64,000 bases of DNA from Fidelibacterota bacterium (GCA_016783665.1 JADHWC010000004.1:1934-65933); one strand, 5' to 3'; counted from the first letter of the stretch, positions 36,661-63,681 are shown. Notes: generated by a model not told the origin, from the letters alone. Numbers and translations are program-made.

Positions 36661-38268
36661 GTGAAGATGAGATTTCGTTGGATAACTGTTCCGGGAACGG
36701 TAATACTTCTGATAATAGTATTGTTAACTATTTCACCGTTTGGAAGAAAGATATCTGCGTCTGGCAGTGATCTGTTTCTGAAAATAAAGGTGTTGAATGA
36801 TATTATCAGCATTATCAATGATTATTATGTTGAAGTCCCGGATTGGGATGAAGTTATGGAGGGAGCTTACAGCGGTCTTCTGGAAAATCTCGATCCGCAC
36901 TCATTTTACATTGAGAAAAAACAGCTGTCAAATATCAATGAGGAATTTACCGGAAAATTTGAAGGTATCGGAATTGAGTTTGACGTATTGGATGGATACA
37001 TCACAGTCATTTCACCAGTGGCAGGAGCGCCGGCGGAAAAAGCCGGTTTGATGGTTGGCGACAAGATTGTAAAGATTGAAGGTGAATCATCCTATAAAAT
37101 TAAACGTGAAAATGTCTCTAAAAAATTACGTGGTCCGAAAGGATCATCTGTCACGGTTACAATTCGCCGGCAGGGCGCCGAAGATTTTGATGTGACAATT
37201 ATCAGGGACGAGATTCCATTGTACAGCGTCTCAGCTGCGTTTCTAATGGATGATAGCGCGGGATATATTTTTGTAAACCGATTCAGTGGAACAACGGCAG
37301 AAGAAATACGCGATGCAATGAAACGGCTCAGCGATGAAGGGATGAAACAACTTGTTCTTGATCTGCGGGGTAATAGTGGTGGTCTGATGGACCAGGCGGT
37401 TGAGATTGCCGATATGTTTATTGACGGAAGACAGATGATTGTTTATACAAAAGGCAGAATCCGGGGCGCCAATGAGGAGTTTTATTCCGGTCGATTCAAT
37501 GGTTTTGGTAAACTTCCCCTTGTAATTTTGATCAACCGAGGCTCTGCCAGCGCCAGCGAAATTGTTGCCGGTGCGGTTCAGGATCATGATCGCGGACTGG
37601 TTGTTGGTGAAACAAGCTTTGGCAAGGGTTTGGTTCAACGGCAATATCCTTTGAGAGACGGTTCCGCTATTCGTATGACAGTTGCCCGCTATTATACTCC
37701 CAGTGGCAGGTTGATTCAGAGACCATACGATGGTACAATGGCAGATTACTTCGAAGGATTTGTAGAAGAAAACAGGGATTCATTACTAGCAGCAGAAGAC
37801 TCCGCTAAGGTTCGTCCTCAATATCAGACTAAAAAAGGACGAGTTGTTTACGGCGGCGGCGGAATATCACCGGATTATTATGTCAAATTCGAGAGAGATC
37901 TATCCAGGGATACATACAAGCTGTTGCGCCATCCGTCACTAGTGCTGTTTGATTATACAAGTCGTACATCTGAAAAATATGAACGGTACAGAAACAGGAA
38001 AGAGAAATTTTTCGAAAAGGTGGAAATTAGCGACGGTGACTTTGAATCTTTCCTTGAAGCAATTCAGGATAAAGAAATTGACGTAAGCATCGAAAAGTTG
38101 AAAAAAGATTCGGATTATCTTAAGCTGTTAATGAAAGCAGAACTTGCCCGGGAATTCTGGGGATATGACGAATACTACAAAGTTATACGTCAATATGACA
38201 ACCAGGTGCAGGCGGCCATGCAATACCTTCGTGAGGCAAGCACAATGATTGGAGTTGCAAATAAATAA
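36661..38268 (+). CDS. S41 family C-terminal processing peptidase with PDZ domain
   Basis: LDPHSFY, FEGIGIEF, GAPAEKAGL, LDLRGNSGG, SASASEIVAGAVQD, TSFGKGLVQ, YYTPSGR. Confidence 0.93.
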   Translation: MKMRFRWITVPGTVILLIIVLLTISPFGRKISASGSDLFLKIKVLNDIISIINDYYVEVPDWDEVMEGAYSGLLENLDPHSFYIEKKQLSNINEEFTGKFEGIGIEFDVLDGYITVISPVAGAPAEKAGLMVGDKIVKIEGESSYKIKRENVSKKLRGPKGSSVTVTIRRQGAEDFDVTIIRDEIPLYSVSAAFLMDDSAGYIFVNRFSGTTAEEIRDAMKRLSDEGMKQLVLDLRGNSGGLMDQAVEIADMFIDGRQMIVYTKGRIRGANEEFYSGRFNGFGKLPLVILINRGSASASEIVAGAVQDHDRGLVVGETSFGKGLVQRQYPLRDGSAIRMTVARYYTPSGRLIQRPYDGTMADYFEGFVEENRDSLLAAEDSAKVRPQYQTKKGRVVYGGGGISPDYYVKFERDLSRDTYKLLRHPSLVLFDYTSRTSEKYERYRNRKEKFFEKVEISDGDFESFLEAIQDKEIDVSIEKLKKDSDYLKLLMKAELAREFWGYDEYYKVIRQYDNQVQAAMQYLREASTMIGVANK

Positions 38269-38293
38269 AACATCTCTCCCGTCGATAATAATG

Positions 38294-38322
38294 TTGACTT
38301 TTTTAAAATATTGGCTTAAAAT
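38294..38322 (+). promoter_or_regulatory. Sigma70-type promoter of the exbB-exbD-exbD-tonB operon
   Basis: TTGACT (38294-38299), 17 bp, TAAAAT (38317-38322). Confidence 0.65.
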
Positions 38323-38372
38323 TATCAGCAATTTAACAAATTTGAGAATAACAGAATGGAGGATAATATCTA

Positions 38373-38993
38373 ATGTTAATTGAGCTTTTCAACCAAGGTG
38401 GACCTTTTATGTGGCCGATTCTGATCCTGTTTGTTTTTGGACTAATGATTTGTTTGGAAAGGGTATACACATTAGCAAAAGCATCTCTGGCTACGAGTCG
38501 CTTTATCCCGAAATTAAACAAAGCGTTGAAAGAAGATGGCGTGGATGCCGCAATGAATGTATGTAAAGAAACACCCGGCCCGATTCCGGAAATTTTTCAT
38601 GCAGGATTATCTCGTGTTGAGCAGGGTATTGAAGTAGTGGAAAAATCGATCGAAAATGCCGGTTCCGTCGAAATGGCATTCCTTGAAAAAGGTATGATCT
38701 GGCTGGCAACCGTTATCACCGTAGCGCCGATGCTTGGATTTGCCGGTACTGTTTCCGGTATGGTTAAAGCGTTTCAGGATATCGCCGCAGCCAACAATAT
38801 TTCTCCGGCTGTCGTCGCATCCGGTATTTCCGAAGCGCTCCTGACCACCTTGTTTGGTCTGATTGTCGGTATTACTATTCAGATTCTCTACAACCTTTTT
38901 ACTGCCCGCGTTGACGGTATTATTGTAGATATGGAAGAGAGTTCCATCAACTTAATAGACACGATCGCAAGTGAAGAATATAAGAAAAAATAA
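38373..38993 (+). CDS. exbB: MotA/TolQ/ExbB proton-channel protein
   Basis: GGPFMWPI, APMLGFAGTVSGMVKAF, GISEALLTTLFGL. Confidence 0.9.
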   Translation: MLIELFNQGGPFMWPILILFVFGLMICLERVYTLAKASLATSRFIPKLNKALKEDGVDAAMNVCKETPGPIPEIFHAGLSRVEQGIEVVEKSIENAGSVEMAFLEKGMIWLATVITVAPMLGFAGTVSGMVKAFQDIAAANNISPAVVASGISEALLTTLFGLIVGITIQILYNLFTARVDGIIVDMEESSINLIDTIASEEYKKK

Positions 38994-39002
38994 GAGCTAC
39001 AG

Positions 39003-39398
39003 ATGAGCTTACTAAAGAAAAAAGGCATACGTGATGCTGAAATGCCGTCGGGTTCGATGGCGGATATAGCCTTTTTGATCCTTATCTTCTTTATGGTTGC
39101 TACAACCATCGACTTGGATAAAGGTATCGGTATCGTTCTTCCCGCCGAAGGCGGAGAGATCGAAATGTCCAGTAAAAATATTACCAATATCCTGATCGAC
39201 GCACGGGGAACGGTCTTGATGGACGATAAAGAAGTGGACATCAAAGAGATTAAAGGTATGGTTGAAACCATTCAGCTCCAAAACCCCAAAATGGTTTTTT
39301 CAGTTAAATCACATCCTCGCACAAAATATAAAGTCTATATTGAGGTTCTGGATCAGTTAAAACAGGCGAACACCCGTGTGATATCTATTGCAGAATAA
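39003..39398 (+). CDS. exbD: ExbD/TolR family protein
   Basis: SMADIAFLILIFFMV transmembrane segment with the conserved Asp. Confidence 0.9.
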   Translation: MSLLKKKGIRDAEMPSGSMADIAFLILIFFMVATTIDLDKGIGIVLPAEGGEIEMSSKNITNILIDARGTVLMDDKEVDIKEIKGMVETIQLQNPKMVFSVKSHPRTKYKVYIEVLDQLKQANTRVISIAE

Positions 39399-39408
39399 GG
39401 AGTAAAGG

Positions 39409-39813
39409 ATGGAATTCAAGAAAAAAACCAAAATGAAAATTTCGATTCCTACGACTGCGATGCCAGATATCATTTTCATGCTGATCTTTTTCTTCATGGT
39501 TTCTTCAGTACTTAGAACGCATGAAGGTTTGAATATTATCATGCCCAAGGCAAAACAGATCGAGAAGCTGGAATCGAGAGTTCACGTGACCTATATATGG
39601 GTTTCCAAAGAGGGGTTGGTCTCAATTGACGACAAACTATATCAGGTGCAAAGTATCCGGAATATCATGTATGAAAAAAGAACCGCCGATCCTCAGCTAA
39701 TTGTATCGATCCGGTCCGATGAACTGGTGCATATGGATTTGATAAGTAAAATCCATAAGGAACTGCGACTGGCGGACGCATTGGCTGTGAATTATTCTAC
39801 AAGAGCAATTTAA
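39409..39813 (+). CDS. exbD: Second ExbD/TolR family protein
   Basis: AMPDIIFMLIFFFMVSS. Confidence 0.9.
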   Translation: MEFKKKTKMKISIPTTAMPDIIFMLIFFFMVSSVLRTHEGLNIIMPKAKQIEKLESRVHVTYIWVSKEGLVSIDDKLYQVQSIRNIMYEKRTADPQLIVSIRSDELVHMDLISKIHKELRLADALAVNYSTRAI

Positions 39814-39822
39814 GGAATAAAA

Positions 39823-40485
39823 ATGATTCTAAGACAAAACCCTGAAGTAAGTCTTAAATTAAAATATCCGCTGGTACTAAGAGTAAGTCTGGTTTTTACG
39901 TTGATAGCGATGATTGTTATGTTTTCTTCCGTACCCAGATCGGGAGGCGGGGATCGAACTCAAACGGAGATCCGAATAGAAATTGAAACAATTGATATTC
40001 CGGTAATTGAACAAAAGATCGAAGCGGCAAAACCACCGTCAAGACCGTCTATTCCCATTGAAGTGGAGGACGATGATCTGCTGGATGATGTTACGATTGA
40101 AATGAGTACCGATATATCCAGCTACGAAGCATGGGACGCGCCGCCGCCACCGCCGGAGGGAGATGATGGACCGCGTGTGAGGTTTATTCCTTATGATGAA
40201 GCCCCGAAGCCCATAGGCGGATTCGCCGCTATTCAGAGAAATGTTGTCTATCCTGAGATTGCCCAGGAAGCTGGAATCGAAGGCACTGTAGTCATACAGG
40301 CATTCGTAAATGAATTTGGTATAGTGACAGATTGTTTGATTCTAAAAGGCGTTCCGAATACCGGTCTGGACGAAGCCGCTGTTGATGCAATTAAAAAGAC
40401 CAGGTTCAAACCGGCAAAGCAGCGCGACAGAAACGTCGGCGTATATATTTCTATCCCTGTTATTTTCAAGCTGCAATCGAATTAA
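39823..40485 (+). CDS. tonB: Energy transducer TonB
   Basis: Single N-terminal TM, Pro-rich PPPPPE, VVYPEIAQEAGIEGTV, FKPAKQR...PVIFKL. Confidence 0.9.
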   Translation: MILRQNPEVSLKLKYPLVLRVSLVFTLIAMIVMFSSVPRSGGGDRTQTEIRIEIETIDIPVIEQKIEAAKPPSRPSIPIEVEDDDLLDDVTIEMSTDISSYEAWDAPPPPPEGDDGPRVRFIPYDEAPKPIGGFAAIQRNVVYPEIAQEAGIEGTVVIQAFVNEFGIVTDCLILKGVPNTGLDEAAVDAIKKTRFKPAKQRDRNVGVYISIPVIFKLQSN

Positions 40486-40564
40486 TTATTTGTTACGAGT
40501 GTAAATACGGAGGACCGGTGCATTAACGGGTAAATAAACCGTAAAAGCCATTTAAGGAATTCAC

Positions 40565-40652
40565 TTGATTCCTAAAAAAACCCTCGAAGTAAATCTGAAA
40601 TTAAAATATCCTCTGGTACTAAAAGCCGGTCTGGTTTTTACCTTATTAGACG
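40565..40652 (+). pseudogene. Truncated 5' fragment of a second tonB paralogue
   Basis: MIPKKTLEVNLKLKYPLVLKAGLVFTLL versus MILRQNPEVSLKLKYPLVLRVSLVFTLI of tonB. Both are preceded by ttaaggaat. Similarity stops near 40652. Confidence 0.75.
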
Positions 40653-40799
40653 AAAAATGCGAATTAAAGAAAAAAAGTTATCCAGATTCTTTATATCTCC
40701 CTTTTGGGTATGTTATACAGTTAGGCTATCATGTATTTAGTACTTTTTCTTTGCAATTAAATGAATAGATTGTAATCTTTGGTATGATATGAAGAAACT

Positions 40800-40818
40800 A
40801 TATAATTACTTGTTGGAC
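40800..40818 (+). other. attI-like or first recombination core site of a cassette pair
   Basis: ATATAAT-TACTT-GTTGGAC has the L-box / 5 bp / GTT layout of attI. TGgTATGAT extended -10 at 40780-40788 upstream. Confidence 0.45.
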
Positions 40819-41608
40819 ACAAAGGGGGAAAACAAATGAAGCTATCATCAGAATTTGCAGTAGTCATAGTAGTGAGTGCCCTCGTGTCGGGTTGCGGGGA
40901 TTCTCCCGCACCGCAGCCGACAAGATTGGGCAGGCCAAAAGCTCCATCCACAGCGGAAGCGCAATCTGACACTGTTTCTCTGCAGACCAAGTCTGACGTT
41001 CTGCCTGGCATCCAAGCATTCTTGGCAAAACATAAGGAGTTTGGATTGCCAAGCAGAACGCAATCTGTGCCCAACTGGGCACAGGGGAAGAGACAACGTG
41101 TTCAGTTTAAGACTGGTCGCAACCTTCTGTTCTATTTGAAGAATGGAAAGGTTGTAACCGTGTATGAAGATACAAAAACTGGAAGTCGCAAGAAAGTTTG
41201 GGGATCACAAGGTGGCAGTGCAGAATATGCCAAAGACATATCAAGACCTGCTACAGGTGCAATACCAAACTACACTATAATCAGTGCCATCAACCTGCTT
41301 GCCGGTGGCAAGCATGCTGATGTTTTGATCCCCAGCCTTTCCAGCACTACTCCGCGTGAAATGCGAAGTAAGGTTGCTTTTGCAATACTGAAAAAAGAAG
41401 GATTGAAGTCCCTTGGAATGTATTCTACACAAGAGGCCTACAAGGCAGACTATTCCTCCTCGTATGCAAAGCAACATCCCAGCGCGAGCAAAGGACGGCT
41501 TGGGTCAATTTCAATGGAAGGACAGTTTAACGACTGAAAGAGTGTCCAACAACCGCTTCACAGTTTTCTCATTCCGCGCGCGGAATGAGAAAACTGTGAA
41601 GCGAAGCG
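40813..41608 (+). mobile_element. Integron-type gene cassette 1
   Basis: 5' core GTTGGACAC (40812-40820) is the exact reverse complement of GTGTCCAAC (41542-41550), which opens the attC just after the stop codon. Confidence 0.85.
40836..41537 (+). CDS. Hypothetical lipoprotein (cassette 1)
   Basis: 233 aa, lipobox LVSG-C, no recognised domain. Confidence 0.75.
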   Translation: MKLSSEFAVVIVVSALVSGCGDSPAPQPTRLGRPKAPSTAEAQSDTVSLQTKSDVLPGIQAFLAKHKEFGLPSRTQSVPNWAQGKRQRVQFKTGRNLLFYLKNGKVVTVYEDTKTGSRKKVWGSQGGSAEYAKDISRPATGAIPNYTIISAINLLAGGKHADVLIPSLSSTTPREMRSKVAFAILKKEGLKSLGMYSTQEAYKADYSSSYAKQHPSASKGRLGSISMEGQFND

Positions 41609-41614
41609 TTATAC
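41544..41614 (+). other. attC site 1 (71 bp)
   Basis: R'' GTCCAAC ... R' GTTATAC enclosing a perfect 50-bp palindrome (41554-41603). Confidence 0.85.
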
Positions 41615-42403
41615 GCTCAACAATAAAAGGGACATAAAATGAGAAAGTTATTTAAGAAAGCAAGACCATTTAAGTCTGTGCTATCATTGAAAGTTGATTT
41701 TTCTTCTGATATGCAAAAGAACTATGGAGAACTTGAATCTGGTCAATCATATCATTTGGGAAGGCGTGAACAAATGATTACATATGACGAGATTAAAGAT
41801 TTTCAATAGAAATGGTCGAAATAGATTTAAAGAAAAATTTAGAAAAAATAACTGACTATCAAATTCCAAGTATAAATGTTGTTAATGAGTATTCTGGAAG
41901 TATTGAACTTGTTCTTACGATTGTATTCGGAACATTCAGCGTTTTAAGTGGCGTTAAAGGATTATATGACAGTATAACGCTCATTAAAAATCAAAGCAGA
42001 AAATTTATTGCCCGGAAATTAAGGAGCAAATATGGAGTAGATTTTAATGTTGATACAAATGTTGAGTATCCAACTATTGAGAGATTTTATCCAGAAGATT
42101 TATTTTTTCATTTTGGTAAACGAGGCATCCTACCATTTCCAATAGCCACAAGTGAAAATCATCGGTCAAGAAGAGATGGCTTTTTTTATTATCTACTCAT
42201 ATCAAATATTGTTTTGTTAATAATACTTGGTTTTATGGTTTATAAAGCAGTCATTCAACAATTTGGATGGTAAATTATTATTTAATAGCGTATAACAAAG
42301 CCAATCAAGCCGACCGCTTCGCTGGATTTGGCTAATGCGCAGTTTTGGCGGTTACATTGTTCGTTAAATCCGCCAAAAATACGGCGGGCTGATGCATTAG
42401 CTG
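41609..42403 (+). mobile_element. Integron-type gene cassette 2
   Basis: 5' core GTTATACGC (41608-41616) is the exact reverse complement of GCGTATAAC (42288-42296), which opens attC 2. Confidence 0.8.
41639..42273 (+). pseudogene. Hypothetical protein with C-terminal TM helix, probably frameshifted (or two small ORFs 41639-41809 and 41812-42273)
   Basis: 56-aa ORF MRKLFKK...IKDFQ-stop followed by a 153-aa ORF MVEIDL. Adding one A at ttttcaatagaaatg fuses them (FQIEMVEID). Confidence 0.55.
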
Positions 42404-42409
42404 GTAAAC
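42290..42409 (+). other. attC site 2 (about 120 bp), distal core degenerate
   Basis: GTATAAC-aaagc-caatcaagccgaccg ... ttttggcgg...ccgccaaaa ... cggcgggctgatg-cattagct-GGTAAAC. Confidence 0.7.
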
Positions 42410-42449
42410 AAACTTCAAAAGTAATTATGTTCTGCAATTAGAATTATTT

Positions 42450-42475
42450 AAAAGGGGCGGTAAGCGCTCCTTTTT
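42450..42475. terminator. Bidirectional intrinsic terminator between the convergent blocks
   Basis: aaaaggggcg-gtaag-cgctcctttttt hairpin flanked by A and T runs. Confidence 0.7.
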
Positions 42476-42505
42476 GATATATAAGAAATACGGCGATGTA
42501 TTTTA

Positions 42506-43405
42506 CTATCCCGGATAATAAGATAAGGTAATAAGATGGGGATGGTTAAAACCTTCCGGCATGAATATAAACGCATAGTCGACACCGAGCCGGTTAATAC
42601 GGATACCAAAACCAAGCGCTCCCCGGTTTACTGATCCGATATGTTCGAAGCCGCCCCGCAATGTAAGCAAATCACGGTAACATATTTCGGCGCCAATCTG
42701 GGCTTTTGCATCACCGGTGATTAAATTGGAACCAAAATTCAATCCGATTGAGCTGTTGAAGGAATCGCCTACAAAAAGTTCCGGTCGTACAATGCCGATA
42801 GTAAGTGTCACAGGCAGACGATTGTTATCGTTAGCTACATCCAGAAACCCCATATTTTGTAGAGAGAATGTCACATCCAACATACTTGGTGCATTCCAGC
42901 GCCCTGCCAGATCAAAAGCGACGCCCTTACCGGTATGTGTATAAAGATGTTCATACAAATATTTTACCGTGCCGCCGATGTCAATTATTTTTATAGGTGA
43001 CCAACAATATCCCGCTGCTATAGCCATGTATTGAGGCTCTATATTTGCCGCTGGTTCATCGGTGGGATAGTCGCGAACCTCGACTCCCGGAATGCGCACA
43101 TAATTCAAGCCGAATCCCAGTGAAGAGTTTTTGAGTGGAATTGATAAAGCCATTGCATCAATGCTGACGTCAGCAACCCAGAAGTGGTGAGACAGGGCAA
43201 GAGCGGTTTGTTCCGAACGAATACCAACCGGGTTTTCAAATATTGCCAACGGAGATTGACCGGCTTGAGAAAATACTGTCATAGTTGCTGCCGATTGGGC
43301 GGAGGATGGTATTTTTAAAAATGCCATACCGGTATTCTGAATTTCGGCGTTTGCCGTGCTGAGTATAAGCAGAATTCCTGAGATGGCGACGTTTATTTTA
43401 TTCAT
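42506..43405 (-). CDS. porV: PorV/PorQ-family outer-membrane beta-barrel
   Basis: Signal peptide, GMAFLKIPSSAQSAA, AIFENPVG, alternating beta-strand pattern, GFNHPHLITLSY. Confidence 0.75.
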   Translation of the reverse strand: MNKINVAISGILLILSTANAEIQNTGMAFLKIPSSAQSAATMTVFSQAGQSPLAIFENPVGIRSEQTALALSHHFWVADVSIDAMALSIPLKNSSLGFGLNYVRIPGVEVRDYPTDEPAANIEPQYMAIAAGYCWSPIKIIDIGGTVKYLYEHLYTHTGKGVAFDLAGRWNAPSMLDVTFSLQNMGFLDVANDNNRLPVTLTIGIVRPELFVGDSFNSSIGLNFGSNLITGDAKAQIGAEICYRDLLTLRGGFEHIGSVNRGALGFGIRINRLGVDYAFIFMPEGFNHPHLITLSYYPG

Positions 43406-43414
43406 TTTATTTAC

Positions 43415-44341
43415 CTAAAATTTGAATTCCCAGGAAAATACATGGGTGCTGCCTTCACCGGCTAAACCGATAAGGGCGCTGTAGTCAATGTGAGTGTTAA
43501 TGTTTTTTATGAAACCATACGCCAGTCCGGCCCCGAATGTCGGGTGAATATTATCCATTCCCATACGAATGTAAAGGATGTCGCTGACCAGGTATTCTCC
43601 GCCAAAGTGTACGCGGTTATCATTTTTGTCGGAAATTTCCACATCCCCGCTAAAAGTAAACGCATTGTTTTGTTTGTATGCTAGACCGATTTTCAAGATT
43701 TGAGGAAACACGTCGGTGTAATTTCCACCTTTTTCGCTAAATAATTCTTGAGTATTCCAGTTATAACTGGCGCCGATATCTTTTAGTTGAACGCCAACAA
43801 TAACCCGATCAAATGGTTTTATCATAACACCGATGTCAAACCCCAGCCCACTGCCGGTTATTCCCAACATGTTGTGACTGAGTATTTTAAAGTTCAGTCC
43901 CACCGAAAAACGACGGTGAAAGGCATTGGAAAATGAAAGTATAATCGCGTTTTCCCCGGTTTCGTAAACTTCGTCGGGCTCACCGGAAAAATTGCGGCCC
44001 TGGATGTCGCTGACGCCGGCATGCATCCATGCTATTGAAATTCCGGCGCTGGGTTTTAGCGGCAGGGCGATCCCGACATAATGCAGCTGACGATCAAGGC
44101 TTAGAAAATAATAGGTAAGTGATAAATGACGCTCGGACAGGTATGATAATCCGGCGGGATTGTAATATGCCGCAAATCCGTTTTCGCTGTCGGCAACACC
44201 GGAGTTGCCCATTCCCAGCGCTCGCGCGCCAAGCCCCATACGTAAATACGAGCCCCCATATCCGGCATTGTCACCGGTAGAGGCTAATGCCAATGAAAGG
44301 AATGTAATCAGAATCAATATTATAAATTTTAATGTTTTCAT
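43415..44341 (-). CDS. porV: PorV/PorQ-family outer-membrane beta-barrel
   Basis: GSYLRMGLGARALGMGNSGVA, AAYYNPAGL, GLGFDIG, C-terminal HVFSWEFKF. Confidence 0.82.
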   Translation of the reverse strand: MKTLKFIILILITFLSLALASTGDNAGYGGSYLRMGLGARALGMGNSGVADSENGFAAYYNPAGLSYLSERHLSLTYYFLSLDRQLHYVGIALPLKPSAGISIAWMHAGVSDIQGRNFSGEPDEVYETGENAIILSFSNAFHRRFSVGLNFKILSHNMLGITGSGLGFDIGVMIKPFDRVIVGVQLKDIGASYNWNTQELFSEKGGNYTDVFPQILKIGLAYKQNNAFTFSGDVEISDKNDNRVHFGGEYLVSDILYIRMGMDNIHPTFGAGLAYGFIKNINTHIDYSALIGLAGEGSTHVFSWEFKF

Positions 44342-44347
44342 AGATTA

Positions 44348-45946
44348 TTATTTGACAATAATCAGTTTTGTCCAGTAAGATTTCTCTTTATCATCGTCTT
44401 TTTTGGTCAATTTACAAAAGTAGGTGCCGTTTGCCACCAGGTCTCCGGCTCTGTTCCGTCCATTCCACGTGATGCTGTTGTCGCCGATATGGATGATATG
44501 ATAATGTTCGCTCTCATACACAAGATCCATAGCAAAATCATATATTTCAAGAGACACGGTTGCCGAATTTTCCAGGTAATATTGTACTCTGACATGACCA
44601 TCGCCATTAAGAACATTATGAATGGATGGAGCAAATGGATTTGGATAAGCGTAAATTGCCGGTTGACTTGGTAAAGATGTGGACAGAAACTTACGATAAA
44701 TTTTCCATTGGATTGTATCGACTGCTGTTTTTGCGATACCGTCGGATGTTCCAAGCCACAAATATGTTGTATCTTCATCTTCAAGAGAATCAACGCCGGC
44801 AGCGTAAACATCGTGTGAAAATATGTAGCTGTTGCTTTTCTCGTCAACCATCGGCTTGTATAGCGCCCAGTTGTCCCCGTCAATAGATTTGAAAAGCCCC
44901 TGTTCTGTACAGGCGTAAACGATTGAATCTTTAAATGCAAAATTATAGATACGTTCGCCAACCAATGTGCGGGACCAGGTTAAACCGCCATCAGTGGTTT
45001 TACAGGCTGCCCGTGTTTCTCCGGCGCCTTCGGCGGTCAGGGCGGCTACCCAGATGGTTTCATCACCCCGCCAGAGTTGTCTGCCCAGCGCAATTATGAA
45101 ATTTCCGGCAAGATTTGAATTCTGAGCATTATAATGTCGCCAGCGGATACAGTCATCAGATTCGACTAATCCCAGGTTTACACCGTTAGCGGTGCCGGCC
45201 CAGACAGTGTCGCCATAGGCAAGCACACCGAAACCTTTATGGTTATGATTTCCCTCCGGCGGATCACGGGGGTTGATCTCGTAGTCTATTTCTTCGCCGC
45301 AAATGAACATGTCATTATCATCACCGGGAAGGGGAAGGCGTTCCCAGGTGGCGCCATAATTCCGGCTGCGGCGTAATCCGCCGGCCCAGCTGGTGATATA
45401 TATAAAAATGGAATCGTCGTCAATTCTACAGAGAGAAATATCCCATGTCGTGTTGTTTACCGGAGTAACGACCGGAAGAAATTCAATAGTATCGCCGCCC
45501 CAGACTTCGTAATCATCATCTGATTCGTCGATTGGCTGCGGAACAAATGTCCATGTTTCTCCGTAATCTTTGGAATATGCCAACCCGCCGCCGGTTTGTT
45601 GTGAACCTAAAACTGTGGTGGAATCAAAAACGCCGGCTACCCATATTATCGAATCAAGTGTGGCAAGCGCGGAAATTCCACCCCGGGGCATATTAGAGTC
45701 GCCAACATAGTAACTGGAGAACGATTTACCGAAATCAGTTGTTTTGCTGAGACCGCCACCTGTCGCGAACCATGTAATGGTTGTATCTTCCTGCATGGCG
45801 ATCTGGGTCACACCGTTGCTGGCAAGTCCCTCATAGACATTTTCCGGGTCATCAATCGTAGGTTTGGATAACCGAAAAGCTTGTCCATAGCTAACCGAAA
45901 CAAGCAGCATAATAATAGATATAAGTATTATCCGTCGTTTGTTCAT
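44348..45946 (-). CDS. Secreted Asp-box (BNR) beta-propeller protein with FlgD-like/T9SS-type C-terminal domain
   Basis: Repeats SKDYGETW, SRNYGATW, TTDGGLTW, SIDGDNW. CTD IYAYPNPF...SLEIYD...ITWNGRNRAGDLVANGTYFCKL...KLIIVK. Confidence 0.8.
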   Translation of the reverse strand: MNKRRIILISIIMLLVSVSYGQAFRLSKPTIDDPENVYEGLASNGVTQIAMQEDTTITWFATGGGLSKTTDFGKSFSSYYVGDSNMPRGGISALATLDSIIWVAGVFDSTTVLGSQQTGGGLAYSKDYGETWTFVPQPIDESDDDYEVWGGDTIEFLPVVTPVNNTTWDISLCRIDDDSIFIYITSWAGGLRRSRNYGATWERLPLPGDDNDMFICGEEIDYEINPRDPPEGNHNHKGFGVLAYGDTVWAGTANGVNLGLVESDDCIRWRHYNAQNSNLAGNFIIALGRQLWRGDETIWVAALTAEGAGETRAACKTTDGGLTWSRTLVGERIYNFAFKDSIVYACTEQGLFKSIDGDNWALYKPMVDEKSNSYIFSHDVYAAGVDSLEDEDTTYLWLGTSDGIAKTAVDTIQWKIYRKFLSTSLPSQPAIYAYPNPFAPSIHNVLNGDGHVRVQYYLENSATVSLEIYDFAMDLVYESEHYHIIHIGDNSITWNGRNRAGDLVANGTYFCKLTKKDDDKEKSYWTKLIIVK

Positions 45947-47016
45947 GGTATTATCGTAAATTCATTATCGCTGACATCAAAGCGGTTAGGATTATCGGGG
46001 TCGGATATTCTTACTTTACAGTGACTGGAAGAAGCATAGGGTACCGACCAGTCGTAATAACCGGTGGAGGCGGTAACAGTTGCAATATTTTGATAACTGG
46101 GTGTTGTTGCATTGTTGTTAGTCGTATATTCCAGTTTAACATTACTAATATAGGCGCTTTTCCATTCGATCCGGTAAGTGTGAGTTGTATATAATGTATC
46201 GGAATAATTAGGTGAAAGCAGAGTAATACCGGGGTTTGTTATATTTGCTTTTAATGTATCGCTGGTAGCGCCGTGAATGTCTTTTGCAACGAAGTAAAAG
46301 ATGTATAATCCCTGTAATTTACTATTGGGATTTGATGGTTGATAAACAGTATACACTCCGTCGTTTGCGTATTGATCGCCGTAATCACCGGCTGGCCCTG
46401 TATCGCTCAGATAGAAAGAAGGGTCTGATATAAATTCACCGTCCGGTCGTAAAACGGAATATGTTGCTGAAGCGATGTCTTGAGAACCTTGCTGGTCTGT
46501 AATCCTCAATTTAAAAATCAGTGTATCTCCTTTTTCAAAGCTGTCGGACACAGACAATGGAAATATTTCCGGCGGGCTGTTCGGAGCGACCCGCTCCGAT
46601 TCGGTTTCGATATCGCTGGAATTTCCGTCACAGTCAAAAGCTTGAACGGTGATCCGGTAATAGCCATCATTATCCGCAAGTGTTGTGGAATCGACGAGAT
46701 ATGAGAACACGTCATCCCGGTTGATAATATCCAGAGGCGGACCAACGTCTACCAATTGTCCGGTAAGAAACAGGGGCTCCTCCACCGAATTAACTGAATC
46801 TTTGCGATATAGATAAAACACCACCGAATCAATTGTTTCCCATCCTTGGGGATCGGTGACTTCGGATGAAATAAACAATGATTTGTTCAATTGGGAATAA
46901 TGTAATGTTACATTTTCGATGACCGGATTGGAAGACGGCGCCGTCTTCTGCCCATTGTTGATACAGGACACCATTATCATAAACAGGATCGATAATATAT
47001 ACAAAAATTTTTTCAT
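45943..47016 (-). CDS. Lipoprotein with acidic Ig-like (choice-of-anchor X like) domains and Ser/Thr-rich C-terminal domain
   Basis: Lipobox MVSC, LSDTGPAGDYGDQYANDGVYTV, ITLLSPN...YRIEW...CKVRISD. Confidence 0.65.
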   Translation of the reverse strand: MKKFLYILSILFMIMVSCINNGQKTAPSSNPVIENVTLHYSQLNKSLFISSEVTDPQGWETIDSVVFYLYRKDSVNSVEEPLFLTGQLVDVGPPLDIINRDDVFSYLVDSTTLADNDGYYRITVQAFDCDGNSSDIETESERVAPNSPPEIFPLSVSDSFEKGDTLIFKLRITDQQGSQDIASATYSVLRPDGEFISDPSFYLSDTGPAGDYGDQYANDGVYTVYQPSNPNSKLQGLYIFYFVAKDIHGATSDTLKANITNPGITLLSPNYSDTLYTTHTYRIEWKSAYISNVKLEYTTNNNATTPSYQNIATVTASTGYYDWSVPYASSSHCKVRISDPDNPNRFDVSDNEFTIIP

Positions 47017-62590: not shown

Positions 62591-62671
62591 CTTGAACATC
62601 GCCGGTTTATGCTTGACCGGCAAGATTATCGAATTCATTTGATCAGTGTCCGGTTATGCCAGCCGTTAGAT
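62591..62671 (-). other. Degenerate attC-like site of cassette 3
   Basis: Minus strand ATCTAAC-ggctg-gcataaccggac ... gccggtcaagc ... GTTCAAG. Right arm is imperfect. Confidence 0.5.
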
Positions 62672-63595
62672 TTCAAAATTCTATCTAGCTTTTAGACGTC
62701 CTTCTTCGAGATTTCTTAGGAGGCATTTTCTTTTCTATTGTTGTTTTCGGTACTGGTGTTCTTCCAGAAGCTTTAGGTTTTTTAACTGAGACTTTTTTAG
62801 CAGTAGCTTTCTTTTTTGCTGTCCTCTCTGTGACTGGAGATTTGCTTTTAGTTATTTCTTTAGTGACGGGACTCTCAATAGAATTCACTTTCTGCTCTGT
62901 ACCATTCTGTTCAGCTTTCTTGCGCGCTTCCTCAAACGATTTAAGTGCTTGCAATGCTTGTTGGTACGGTGCGACATCACGAATAACACAGACGCCTGGT
63001 AGGGATTCACCAGTGGCTCTATTCGGTATATAGGCGGAAACGACTCCACATATTTCCGTGATATCTCCGACAATAGTGAACGCTGGCCCACCGCTGACAC
63101 CATTTATTGCAACACCATCTACGAGATAAGAGCTTTTCCCTTCGAGCCAGGAGCTAATTCTTCCTGTAAAAAAGCATAAATCATCTGGTGCAATGGCTGG
63201 AAAACCACACCAACCTATCTCTACACCCTGTTTCTTTCGTTTATCCTTGTCTATCACTTGCAAAGAGTTTTTCTCAATAGGACACTTCTCGGGATGAAAT
63301 AGGATTATAGCAAGGTCTACGGATGGGTATGTAAAAATCACCCTATTTGCCATTTTTAACATCTTTGTCTCTTTCGAAGCGTAATGAAATAGCTTGATAG
63401 GATCCTCCCAATCATATGCATGTTCGATAACATGAAGTGCCGTTGCCACTCCGCAGAATCCCGTTGATTCTCTATAGAATAACTGAAAGCCTGTCCCAGA
63501 ACCTCGTGGAGTAGACACCTTAAATACATATGGCTTAATCAACTCCAGTGCTTTTGTCCAGGTGATGCTAGTCATAATGTTCTCCTGAAATCTAA
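62597..63595 (-). mobile_element. Probable solitary integron-type gene cassette 3
   Basis: 12-bp perfect inverted pair cgttagatttca (62664-62675) and tgaaatctaacg (63586-63597) brackets a single ORF. GTTAGAT core lies directly before an AGGAG RBS. Confidence 0.65.
62685..63575 (-). CDS. Trypsin-like serine protease with Lys/Arg-rich low-complexity C-terminal tail
   Basis: GSGTGF, TALHVI (His), DLAII (Asp), NGVSGGP (Ser). No signal peptide. Tail KKKATAKKVSVKKPKASG...KKSRRRTSKS. Confidence 0.8.
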   Translation of the reverse strand: MTSITWTKALELIKPYVFKVSTPRGSGTGFQLFYRESTGFCGVATALHVIEHAYDWEDPIKLFHYASKETKMLKMANRVIFTYPSVDLAIILFHPEKCPIEKNSLQVIDKDKRKKQGVEIGWCGFPAIAPDDLCFFTGRISSWLEGKSSYLVDGVAINGVSGGPAFTIVGDITEICGVVSAYIPNRATGESLPGVCVIRDVAPYQQALQALKSFEEARKKAEQNGTEQKVNSIESPVTKEITKSKSPVTERTAKKKATAKKVSVKKPKASGRTPVPKTTIEKKMPPKKSRRRTSKS

Positions 63596-63681
63596 CGATG
63601 TCTATGTTACGTCACCGCTCATTAACACTTTCAAAATTGCAAGCAAATCCTTTCATTGAAATAAAACGAAAGGAGCATTAA

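Follow-up and report, generated by a model that had tools for sequence, protein, structure and literature searches.

A probable integrase-less integron satellite with an attI-like site and two cassettes between tonB and a porV-like gene in a Marinimicrobia genome

We analyzed a 64,000-nt window (the whole stretch of DNA, with positions counted from its first letter) from a metagenome-assembled genome of Candidatus Neomarinimicrobiota (Marinimicrobia), an uncultured marine host with a genome of 2.38 Mb. The locus under study resembles an integron without an integrase of its own: an AT-rich, attI-like element, here called X, is followed by two gene cassettes and their attC sites. It lies between the stop codon of tonB (39823-40485), the final gene of an exbB-exbD-exbD-tonB operon, and a convergent porV-like gene (42506-43405, minus strand) that belongs to a type IX secretion cluster. 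Unit 1 has a GC content of ~50% and unit 2 one of ~30%; that of the genome is ~41%. Below, G000 is this genome, C51 (66.6 kb) is the contig that holds the window, G001 to G003 are genomes of the same genus, L-numbers are metagenome contigs or assemblies, and X followed by a number is a sequencing run. The main features are the following.

40673-40812, plus strand: X, AT-rich, attI-like landing site (class B) with a truncated 5' end and its crossover at G40812|T40813
40779-40806, plus strand: predicted promoter in X, TTGGTA-16-TATAAT, 10/12 matches
40813-41608, plus strand: cassette 1, starting with (G)TTGGACAC, which is the reverse complement of the cassette's R'' GTGTCCAAC
40836-41537, plus strand: open reading frame 1 (ORF1), 233 aa, predicted lipoprotein (MKLS...ALVSGC)
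41544-41614, plus strand: attC1, 71 nt, consisting of R'' GTCCAAC, spacer AACCG, 25-bp perfect palindrome arms, spacer CGAAGC and R' GTTATAC
41609-42403, plus strand: cassette 2, through the end of its degenerate attC
41639-42273, plus strand: gene of a 211-aa family, with a soluble N-terminal part and a C-terminal membrane helix
42288-42409, plus strand: attC2, with a genuine R''-L'' (GCGTATAAC AAAGCCAATCAAGCCGACCGC), a degenerate 3' arm and no GTTRRRY R' box

In both units the 5' core is the exact 9-nt reverse complement of the R'' of the unit's own attC, as the first-pass annotation of the window had read from the sequence. In cassette 1, GTTGGACAC at 40812-40820 corresponds to GTGTCCAAC at 41542-41550, and in cassette 2, GTTATACGC at 41608-41616 corresponds to GCGTATAAC at 42288-42296. 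The positions of these cores are fixed by independent landmarks, so chance matches are negligible (4^-9 each).

Comparison with relatives, which the first-pass annotation had proposed as a check, revealed that the site is empty in some of them and holds other cassettes in others. The congeneric species G001 and G002 (flanks 92-94% identical) both align over 38000-40532 and then directly over 42431-45992, and other genera have a bidirectional terminator alone between tonB and porV. The ~1.87 kb in between is therefore an insert. The remaining genome of the genus, G003, is interrupted at the locus and is uninformative for this comparison. The empty form was also found in sequencing run X10.

The cassette content turns over at exact junctions. 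L218 and L219 (97% identity) are anchored to the window on the left over 40629-40814 and on the right over 41607-43500 (L218) or 41607-42692 (L219), and the entire cassette 1 stretch between the anchors is exchanged for two other cassettes. One holds a 139-aa gene together with a ThsB-type TIR gene, the other a 288-aa gene. Both breakpoints are predicted G|TT crossovers: that of X (40812|40813) and that at which cassette 2 starts (41607-41609). The alternative cassette with the 139-aa and ThsB-TIR genes starts with GTTATGTGT and its own attC has ACACATAAC. Contig L122 is 100% identical over 41607-42579 yet carries another cassette and attC upstream, so some of the turnover is very recent. Contigs from runs X8, X10 and X12 (ground- and freshwater metagenomes, ~95% identical) break at the same 41607-41609 position, and the sequence ahead of it differs from cassette 1. 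The arrangement of the window itself recurs in the independent assemblies L116, L117 and L121 and is for that reason not chimeric.

Cassette 2 is mobile beyond this locus. It was found in at least 11 metagenome contigs. In these, homology sets in at 41607 (C G|TTATACGC) and extends to 42298, two bases past the R'' core, or to 42282. At least three upstream contexts (with different attCs) and at least four downstream contexts (with different cassettes) were recovered. In its R''-L'' part, attC2 shares homology with the attC found behind this cassette in other contigs (GCGTATAAC + AAAGCCAATCAAGCCGAC in the window, GCGTATAAC + CAGCCAATCAAGCG in L105 and GCGTATAAC + AAGTGGCTCAAGGCGAC in L106). The first-pass annotation had described two reading frames in this cassette; these are one 211-aa gene, split into 56-aa and 153-aa frames by a 1-nt deletion after 41804, which is the single gap in the alignment with L106. 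Intact 211-aa homologs exist (P0010, in the same 90%-identity cluster, and P0002, at 88%). The neighbors of cassette 2 in other arrays (L105 1019-1902; L218 208-1058) include ThsB-type TIR and 8xMP genes and look like defense cargo.

The attC of cassette 1 likewise belongs to a family of sites found between unrelated cassettes. It has the core sites of an attC (R'' RYYYAAC and R' GTTRRRY, 50-150 nt apart), and the 3' part of R' belongs to cassette 2, as expected. Its 25-nt arms are perfectly complementary and form the palindrome expected of a single-stranded attC, with a folding energy of -32 kcal/mol (z = -9.5 versus shuffles), and its spacers of 5 and 6 nt match those in the attCs of relatives. 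In a structural scan of the 2.38-Mb genome it was the strongest hairpin bounded by AAC...GTT, at an energy reached in no dinucleotide-shuffled genome; the scan is clean only at -25 kcal/mol or below and is unspecific at -12 kcal/mol (37 loci versus 18-23 in shuffled genomes). The right arm of attC1 retrieved five Joint Genome Institute contigs (L221-L225) that match the window in the attC (41545-41610) alone; each differs in the outer bases of R'' and in the sequence past GTT. The left arm of these copies reads CTT[G]CACA[A]GT[A]TTTCTC, with three bulged bases (in brackets) where extrahelical bases are expected. The window copy (41554-41603) is an exact palindrome, apparently 'perfected' through the loss of all three at once, which would fit templated hairpin repair from one arm to the other.

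The cargo of cassette 1, ORF1, has no match among Pfam, NCBIfam or PADLOC families, and its homologs fall into 36 other clusters (identity up to 71%), mainly on short metagenome contigs. One homolog, P0022, was considered as a comparable cassette context and dropped, as its arrangement is different and lacks an attC. The contig of P0022 (L132, 3244-4001) contains more than 20 copies of CAACTTGGACA in ~750 bp, placed upstream of small same-strand reading frames without attC, and the content of this region differs between L132 and L133.

X has homologs at two further positions in this genome (C99:40332-40470 and C99:43119-43261), and 21 more occur in seven related genomes from four genera. All 24 copies are conserved up to ...AAACTATA(G/T)AAT(A/T)AC(T/C)T and the crossover and diverge straight past the GTTRRR-like core, the behavior of an attI-like, double-strand landing site. 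Of the crossover triplets, 20/24 are G|TT, and the other four are ATT, GTG or GCT. Behind each copy stands a different cassette, as expected of an attI, a conserved site that ends at the crossover and precedes varied cassettes. The cassettes behind other X copies, and the one in L218, begin with the reverse complement of their own R'', and it is exactly at the crossover of the window's X that L218 and L219 switch to another cassette. X contains no AAC...GTT palindrome and no conserved fold, and Rfam returned no match for two loci with X, so X is not an attC. One of the 24 copies occupies the canonical attI position: it is divergent from a complete intI (G003:C246) and lies ~340 nt upstream of that gene. 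Another abuts a truncated intI (G016:C77).

X also carries the best sigma-70-like site of the region. The ATATAAT-N5-GTT string noted in the first-pass annotation is present at 40800-40814; the extended -10 that it proposed is rejected, as the best promoter-like site has no TG. The counterpart in the X family, TTGAAT-16-TAGAAT, keeps the same geometry. The predicted promoter would start transcripts at about the crossover.

A model of the integron integrase (TIGR02249) gives no match on contig C51 at E<=0.001, in agreement with the absence of a tyrosine recombinase noted earlier, and the locus is not a complete integron with an intI adjoining its attI and array. The search for intI elsewhere found a single gene above the curated cut-off (484 bits vs 265), at G000:C86:19743-20681. 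Upstream of it lie dnaJ and grpE, so its array must follow the gene on the same strand. Contig C86 stops 4 nt after ...GAATAAACGTAG|TTA, and in UBA9312 (G014) a textbook cassette array starts from the same attI crossover behind an intI that is 91% identical. Genes above the cut-off were found in 21/41 related genomes, and good attC sites lie on at least seven other contigs of this genome.

Several observations concern other integron sequences of this genome. Just upstream of intI, an inverted 119-aa reading frame (G000:C86:19283-19501, minus strand) duplicates part of the intI N-terminus; its match to the integron-integrase model covers residues 28-99. A second integrase-less array (G000:C99:40100-45173; L061 4100-9174) begins with an AGAAAC-repeat region, as found 3' of intI in relatives, followed by X (class A). 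Then come two cassettes, one with an IS630-family transposase and one of 221 aa, and next an IHF/HU-like gene, a second X (class B) and at least three further cassettes; the contig ends inside the array. The window itself holds another attC-bounded cassette (62591-63596, minus strand) with a trypsin-like reading frame. It starts with G|TTAGATTT (plus 63588-63596), and its attC has R'' AAATCTAAC (plus 62665-62673) and R' GTTCAAG (plus 62591-62597), with the same 9-nt core swap.

The ends of the insert are marked by three further features.

40503-40552, plus strand: D2A, left 50-bp direct repeat, 17 nt past the tonB stop and 76% identical to 42377-42426
40543-40641, plus strand: tonB' pseudogene fragment, a ~100-nt copy of the exbD 3' end and the first ~27 tonB codons, at the left end of the insert
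42377-42426, plus strand: D2B, right 50-bp direct repeat, resident DNA, 93% identical to the single copy in G002

Only one repeat copy, of the B-like type, is present where the site is empty (G001 and G002). The window's D2A has five private, clustered substitutions that are missing from the relatives in runs X8 and X12. The D2B sequence (GGGCTG..GC.TTAGC) is similar to the L' arm of the long attC family (TGGGCTGCGCCTTAGCC in L106), and the repeat may be an old attC scar. The tonB' fragment is 81% identical to the tonB region of G002, and over its 65 coding nt it shares 88% identity with tonB1 of the window; in the reading frame of tonB', similarity to TonB stops after about codon 27. Positions 40586-40649 of the insert are identical (64/64 nt) to the functional tonB 5' end of the relative in run X12, against 88% for the window's own tonB.

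We interpret the locus as an integrase-less satellite of an integron system, formally an attC-site cluster that has no integrase (CALIN; at least two clustered attCs with no intI nearby), with an orphan attI-like site and two cassettes, and we give this reading a probability of roughly 85%. The two attCs lie 0.7 kb apart, and the second is degenerate. This agrees with the first-pass annotation, which had proposed an integrase-less cassette cluster with an attI-like site and its own promoter; the strain comparison and the presence of intI elsewhere support it, and we infer the trans-acting integrase and the activity of the promoter. An integron integrase encoded elsewhere would insert circular cassettes at the G|TT of X, and the same enzyme would exchange cassettes at the attC junctions. 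That enzyme may be the product of the intact C86 intI or an integrase since lost. The promoter of X would read into whichever cassette stands first, and the present copy may still be able to recombine. It looks partly decayed, with the tonB' pseudogene, an attC1 without extrahelical bases and an attC2 without R'. Overall, this is a real but fairly ordinary integron-system satellite.

Some results weigh against this interpretation. Extrahelical bases are thought to be necessary for strand choice in attC recombination, and attC1 in the window is a perfect palindrome from which all three bulged bases are gone. The R' box and pairing arm expected of an attC are missing from attC2, which ends in GCTGGTAAAC and shows weak arm complementarity. 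Its left arm forms a duplex of -10.3 kcal/mol with 42377-42412, a value equaled by 35/500 shuffles; a true relative reaches -19.6. With home-made covariance models built from native attCs, neither attC1 nor attC2 rose above noise, and the models also missed most short, boundary-validated attCs. Model R1 (seven long attCs) found 10 non-training attCs at E <= 0.02 and works for the long subfamily only; it gave at most 9 bits to the window sites and missed the boundary-validated short attCs of L061 and L024, except L061 5911-5968. Model R2 (three sequences, arms only) was too sequence-specific, missed attC1 and found noise alone in the window. A general attC model could not be built because MAFFT alignments of mixed-length attCs left the arms out of register. 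Rfam over the region gave spurious microRNA-hairpin matches to the attC1 palindrome and nothing else. The similarity of X to the attI region beside this genome's intI is not above that of shuffles, and the idea that the two are paralogs was dropped. The sole complete intI found beside an X copy (G003:C246) is 44% identical to this genome's intI. Finally, no RNA runs with cassette 1 were found.

Four other explanations were weighed. There is a real but minor chance that the locus is a frozen relic, a platform that was active in the ancestor of the species group and whose present copy no longer recombines and carries decaying cargo. The frameshift in the cassette 2 gene would fit this, as would the loss from attC1 of the bulged bases seen in L221-L225, the missing R' of attC2 and the identical content of the strain L121 (99.4% identity) and the assemblies L116 and L117. 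However, X and its G|TT are intact. Moreover, a contig from the same study, L122, shares cassette 2 and the right flank with the window at 100% identity yet has another upstream cassette. Integrase-mediated insertion into a genomic site that is not an att site (a secondary site or attG, with a GWT or GNT target) is improbable. Such events are documented (10.1101/2022.09.11.507474; PMC4889954), and the array does end in GGT. The first-pass annotation had taken this ending as compatible with a GNT secondary-site junction. The string GCTGGTAAAC is indeed present, with GGT at 42403-42405, but the junction does not hold, as the final third of attC2 (42377-42409), GGT included, is resident DNA found in cassette-less relatives, as is the DNA around it (42377-42426). 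The right end is thus not a simple attC x GNT junction, because GGT lies in the resident repeat and the insert begins with a tonB fragment. Compared with the empty site (G001, G002 and run X10), which has neither X nor the tonB fragment, the insert starts with that fragment and X and is bounded by the 50-bp direct repeats, and its left cassette junction is the conserved X crossover rather than chromosomal DNA. An attG or secondary-site insertion was rejected on these grounds.

Two explanations that would make the arrangement artefactual or coincidental fare worse still. It is very improbable that a piece of the genome's main integron array was misjoined into a core contig during assembly. Arrays are hard to assemble, and Logan contigs break within the attC1 palindrome. 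Nevertheless, L116, L117 and L121, from other samples and assemblers, span tonB, X and both cassettes unbroken, with two of them reaching porV, and L218 runs from X to porV in a relative. We regard it as barely conceivable that the locus is unrelated to integrons and consists of ordinary terminators behind two horizontally acquired genes, with core matches by chance. The failure of the home-made covariance models to match, and the fact that Rfam returned spurious microRNA hairpins only, would point that way. Against it stand exact homology breakpoints at G|TT in more than 20 independent sequences, the two exact 9-nt core swaps, and the variable outer cores of the attC1 family, as predicted from cassette exchange.

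The integron-satellite reading places the locus among several known systems. In chromosomal integrons of the 'inverted' type, such as those of Treponema, intI is co-oriented with the array. The C86 integron and its UBA9312 ortholog likewise carry the array 3' of intI on the same strand; this is the parent system and not the studied locus, and X is unrelated to the attI region there. There are also mobile integrons, for example class 1 delta-intI1 derivatives, in which intI is deleted or truncated while attI and the cassette promoter (Pc) are retained. The present locus shares with them an attI(-like) site, a promoter(-like) site and cassettes without an adjoining working integrase, which would depend on supply in trans. 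Unlike them, it has no intI remnant on contig C51, its attI-like site is one of three copies in the genome, and it lies in a chromosomal core-gene context of an uncultured marine phylum without resistance genes.

About half of all CALINs lie in genomes that encode IntI, and their mobilization in trans has been proposed (PMC4889954). Like CALINs (PMC4889954), the locus consists of two attC-bounded cassettes with no intI on the 66.6-kb C51 and IntI elsewhere in the genome; it is also small, with cassettes of unknown function. It differs from them in keeping a recognizable attI-like site and a promoter-like site at its head and in having a degenerate last attC. Its content was also found to vary among close relatives, which is rarely documented for a CALIN. 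Insertion at attG places a cassette directly into a genomic GWT and has been proposed as the origin of small CALINs and of single attC sites lacking an integrase (SALINs) (10.1101/2022.09.11.507474; PMC4889954). The locus resembles SALINs and attG insertions (10.1101/2022.09.11.507474) in having cassettes outside a complete integron and an integrase in the genome, but here the cassettes stand behind a conserved attI-like element and the empty site shows no GWT junction.

X may be more than a single landing site. In arrays of L082, L090, L095, L097 and L104 (relatives G003, G006 and G015), X units occur in tandem, in the order X, cassette, attC, X, cassette. Three 5' parts (classes A, B and C) are joined to one conserved core of ~95 nt. 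The units share one 5' start, a G|TT-type junction, wherever they are preceded by an attC R' (GTTAGCC, GTTAGGC or GTTCAAG), and there are up to nine copies per genome, 83-97% identical across genera. Gene-less cassettes with promoter activity are known and end in a normal attC (PMC6557892; 10.1101/2023.11.21.568050). The X-type units in related arrays are similarly short, lack a reading frame, have a promoter-like site and lie between cassettes; unlike gene-less promoter cassettes, X lacks an R''...R' palindrome, and its end is an attI-like core (GAATAAC-TT-GTT). We tentatively suggest, with rather less than even confidence, that X is a small, gene-less, promoter-bearing mobile module that ends in the attI-type core GAATAAC-TT-G|TT. 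If this is true, attI x attC recombination could bring an X circle into any attC. The circle would thereby plant a promoter and a fresh landing site in arrays and could seed integrase-less satellite platforms such as the present one. Such a multi-copy module might be new and could change thinking on the expression and seeding of arrays.

A literature search found no paper that treats Marinimicrobia integrons, and the locus extends integrons to this abundant, uncultured ocean phylum. The same chromosomal spot is empty, two-cassette or three-cassette in close populations, which makes it a clean natural example of a CALIN and not mere debris. The alternative cassettes with TIR-domain (ThsB-like) genes fit the view of chromosomal arrays as stores of defense genes.

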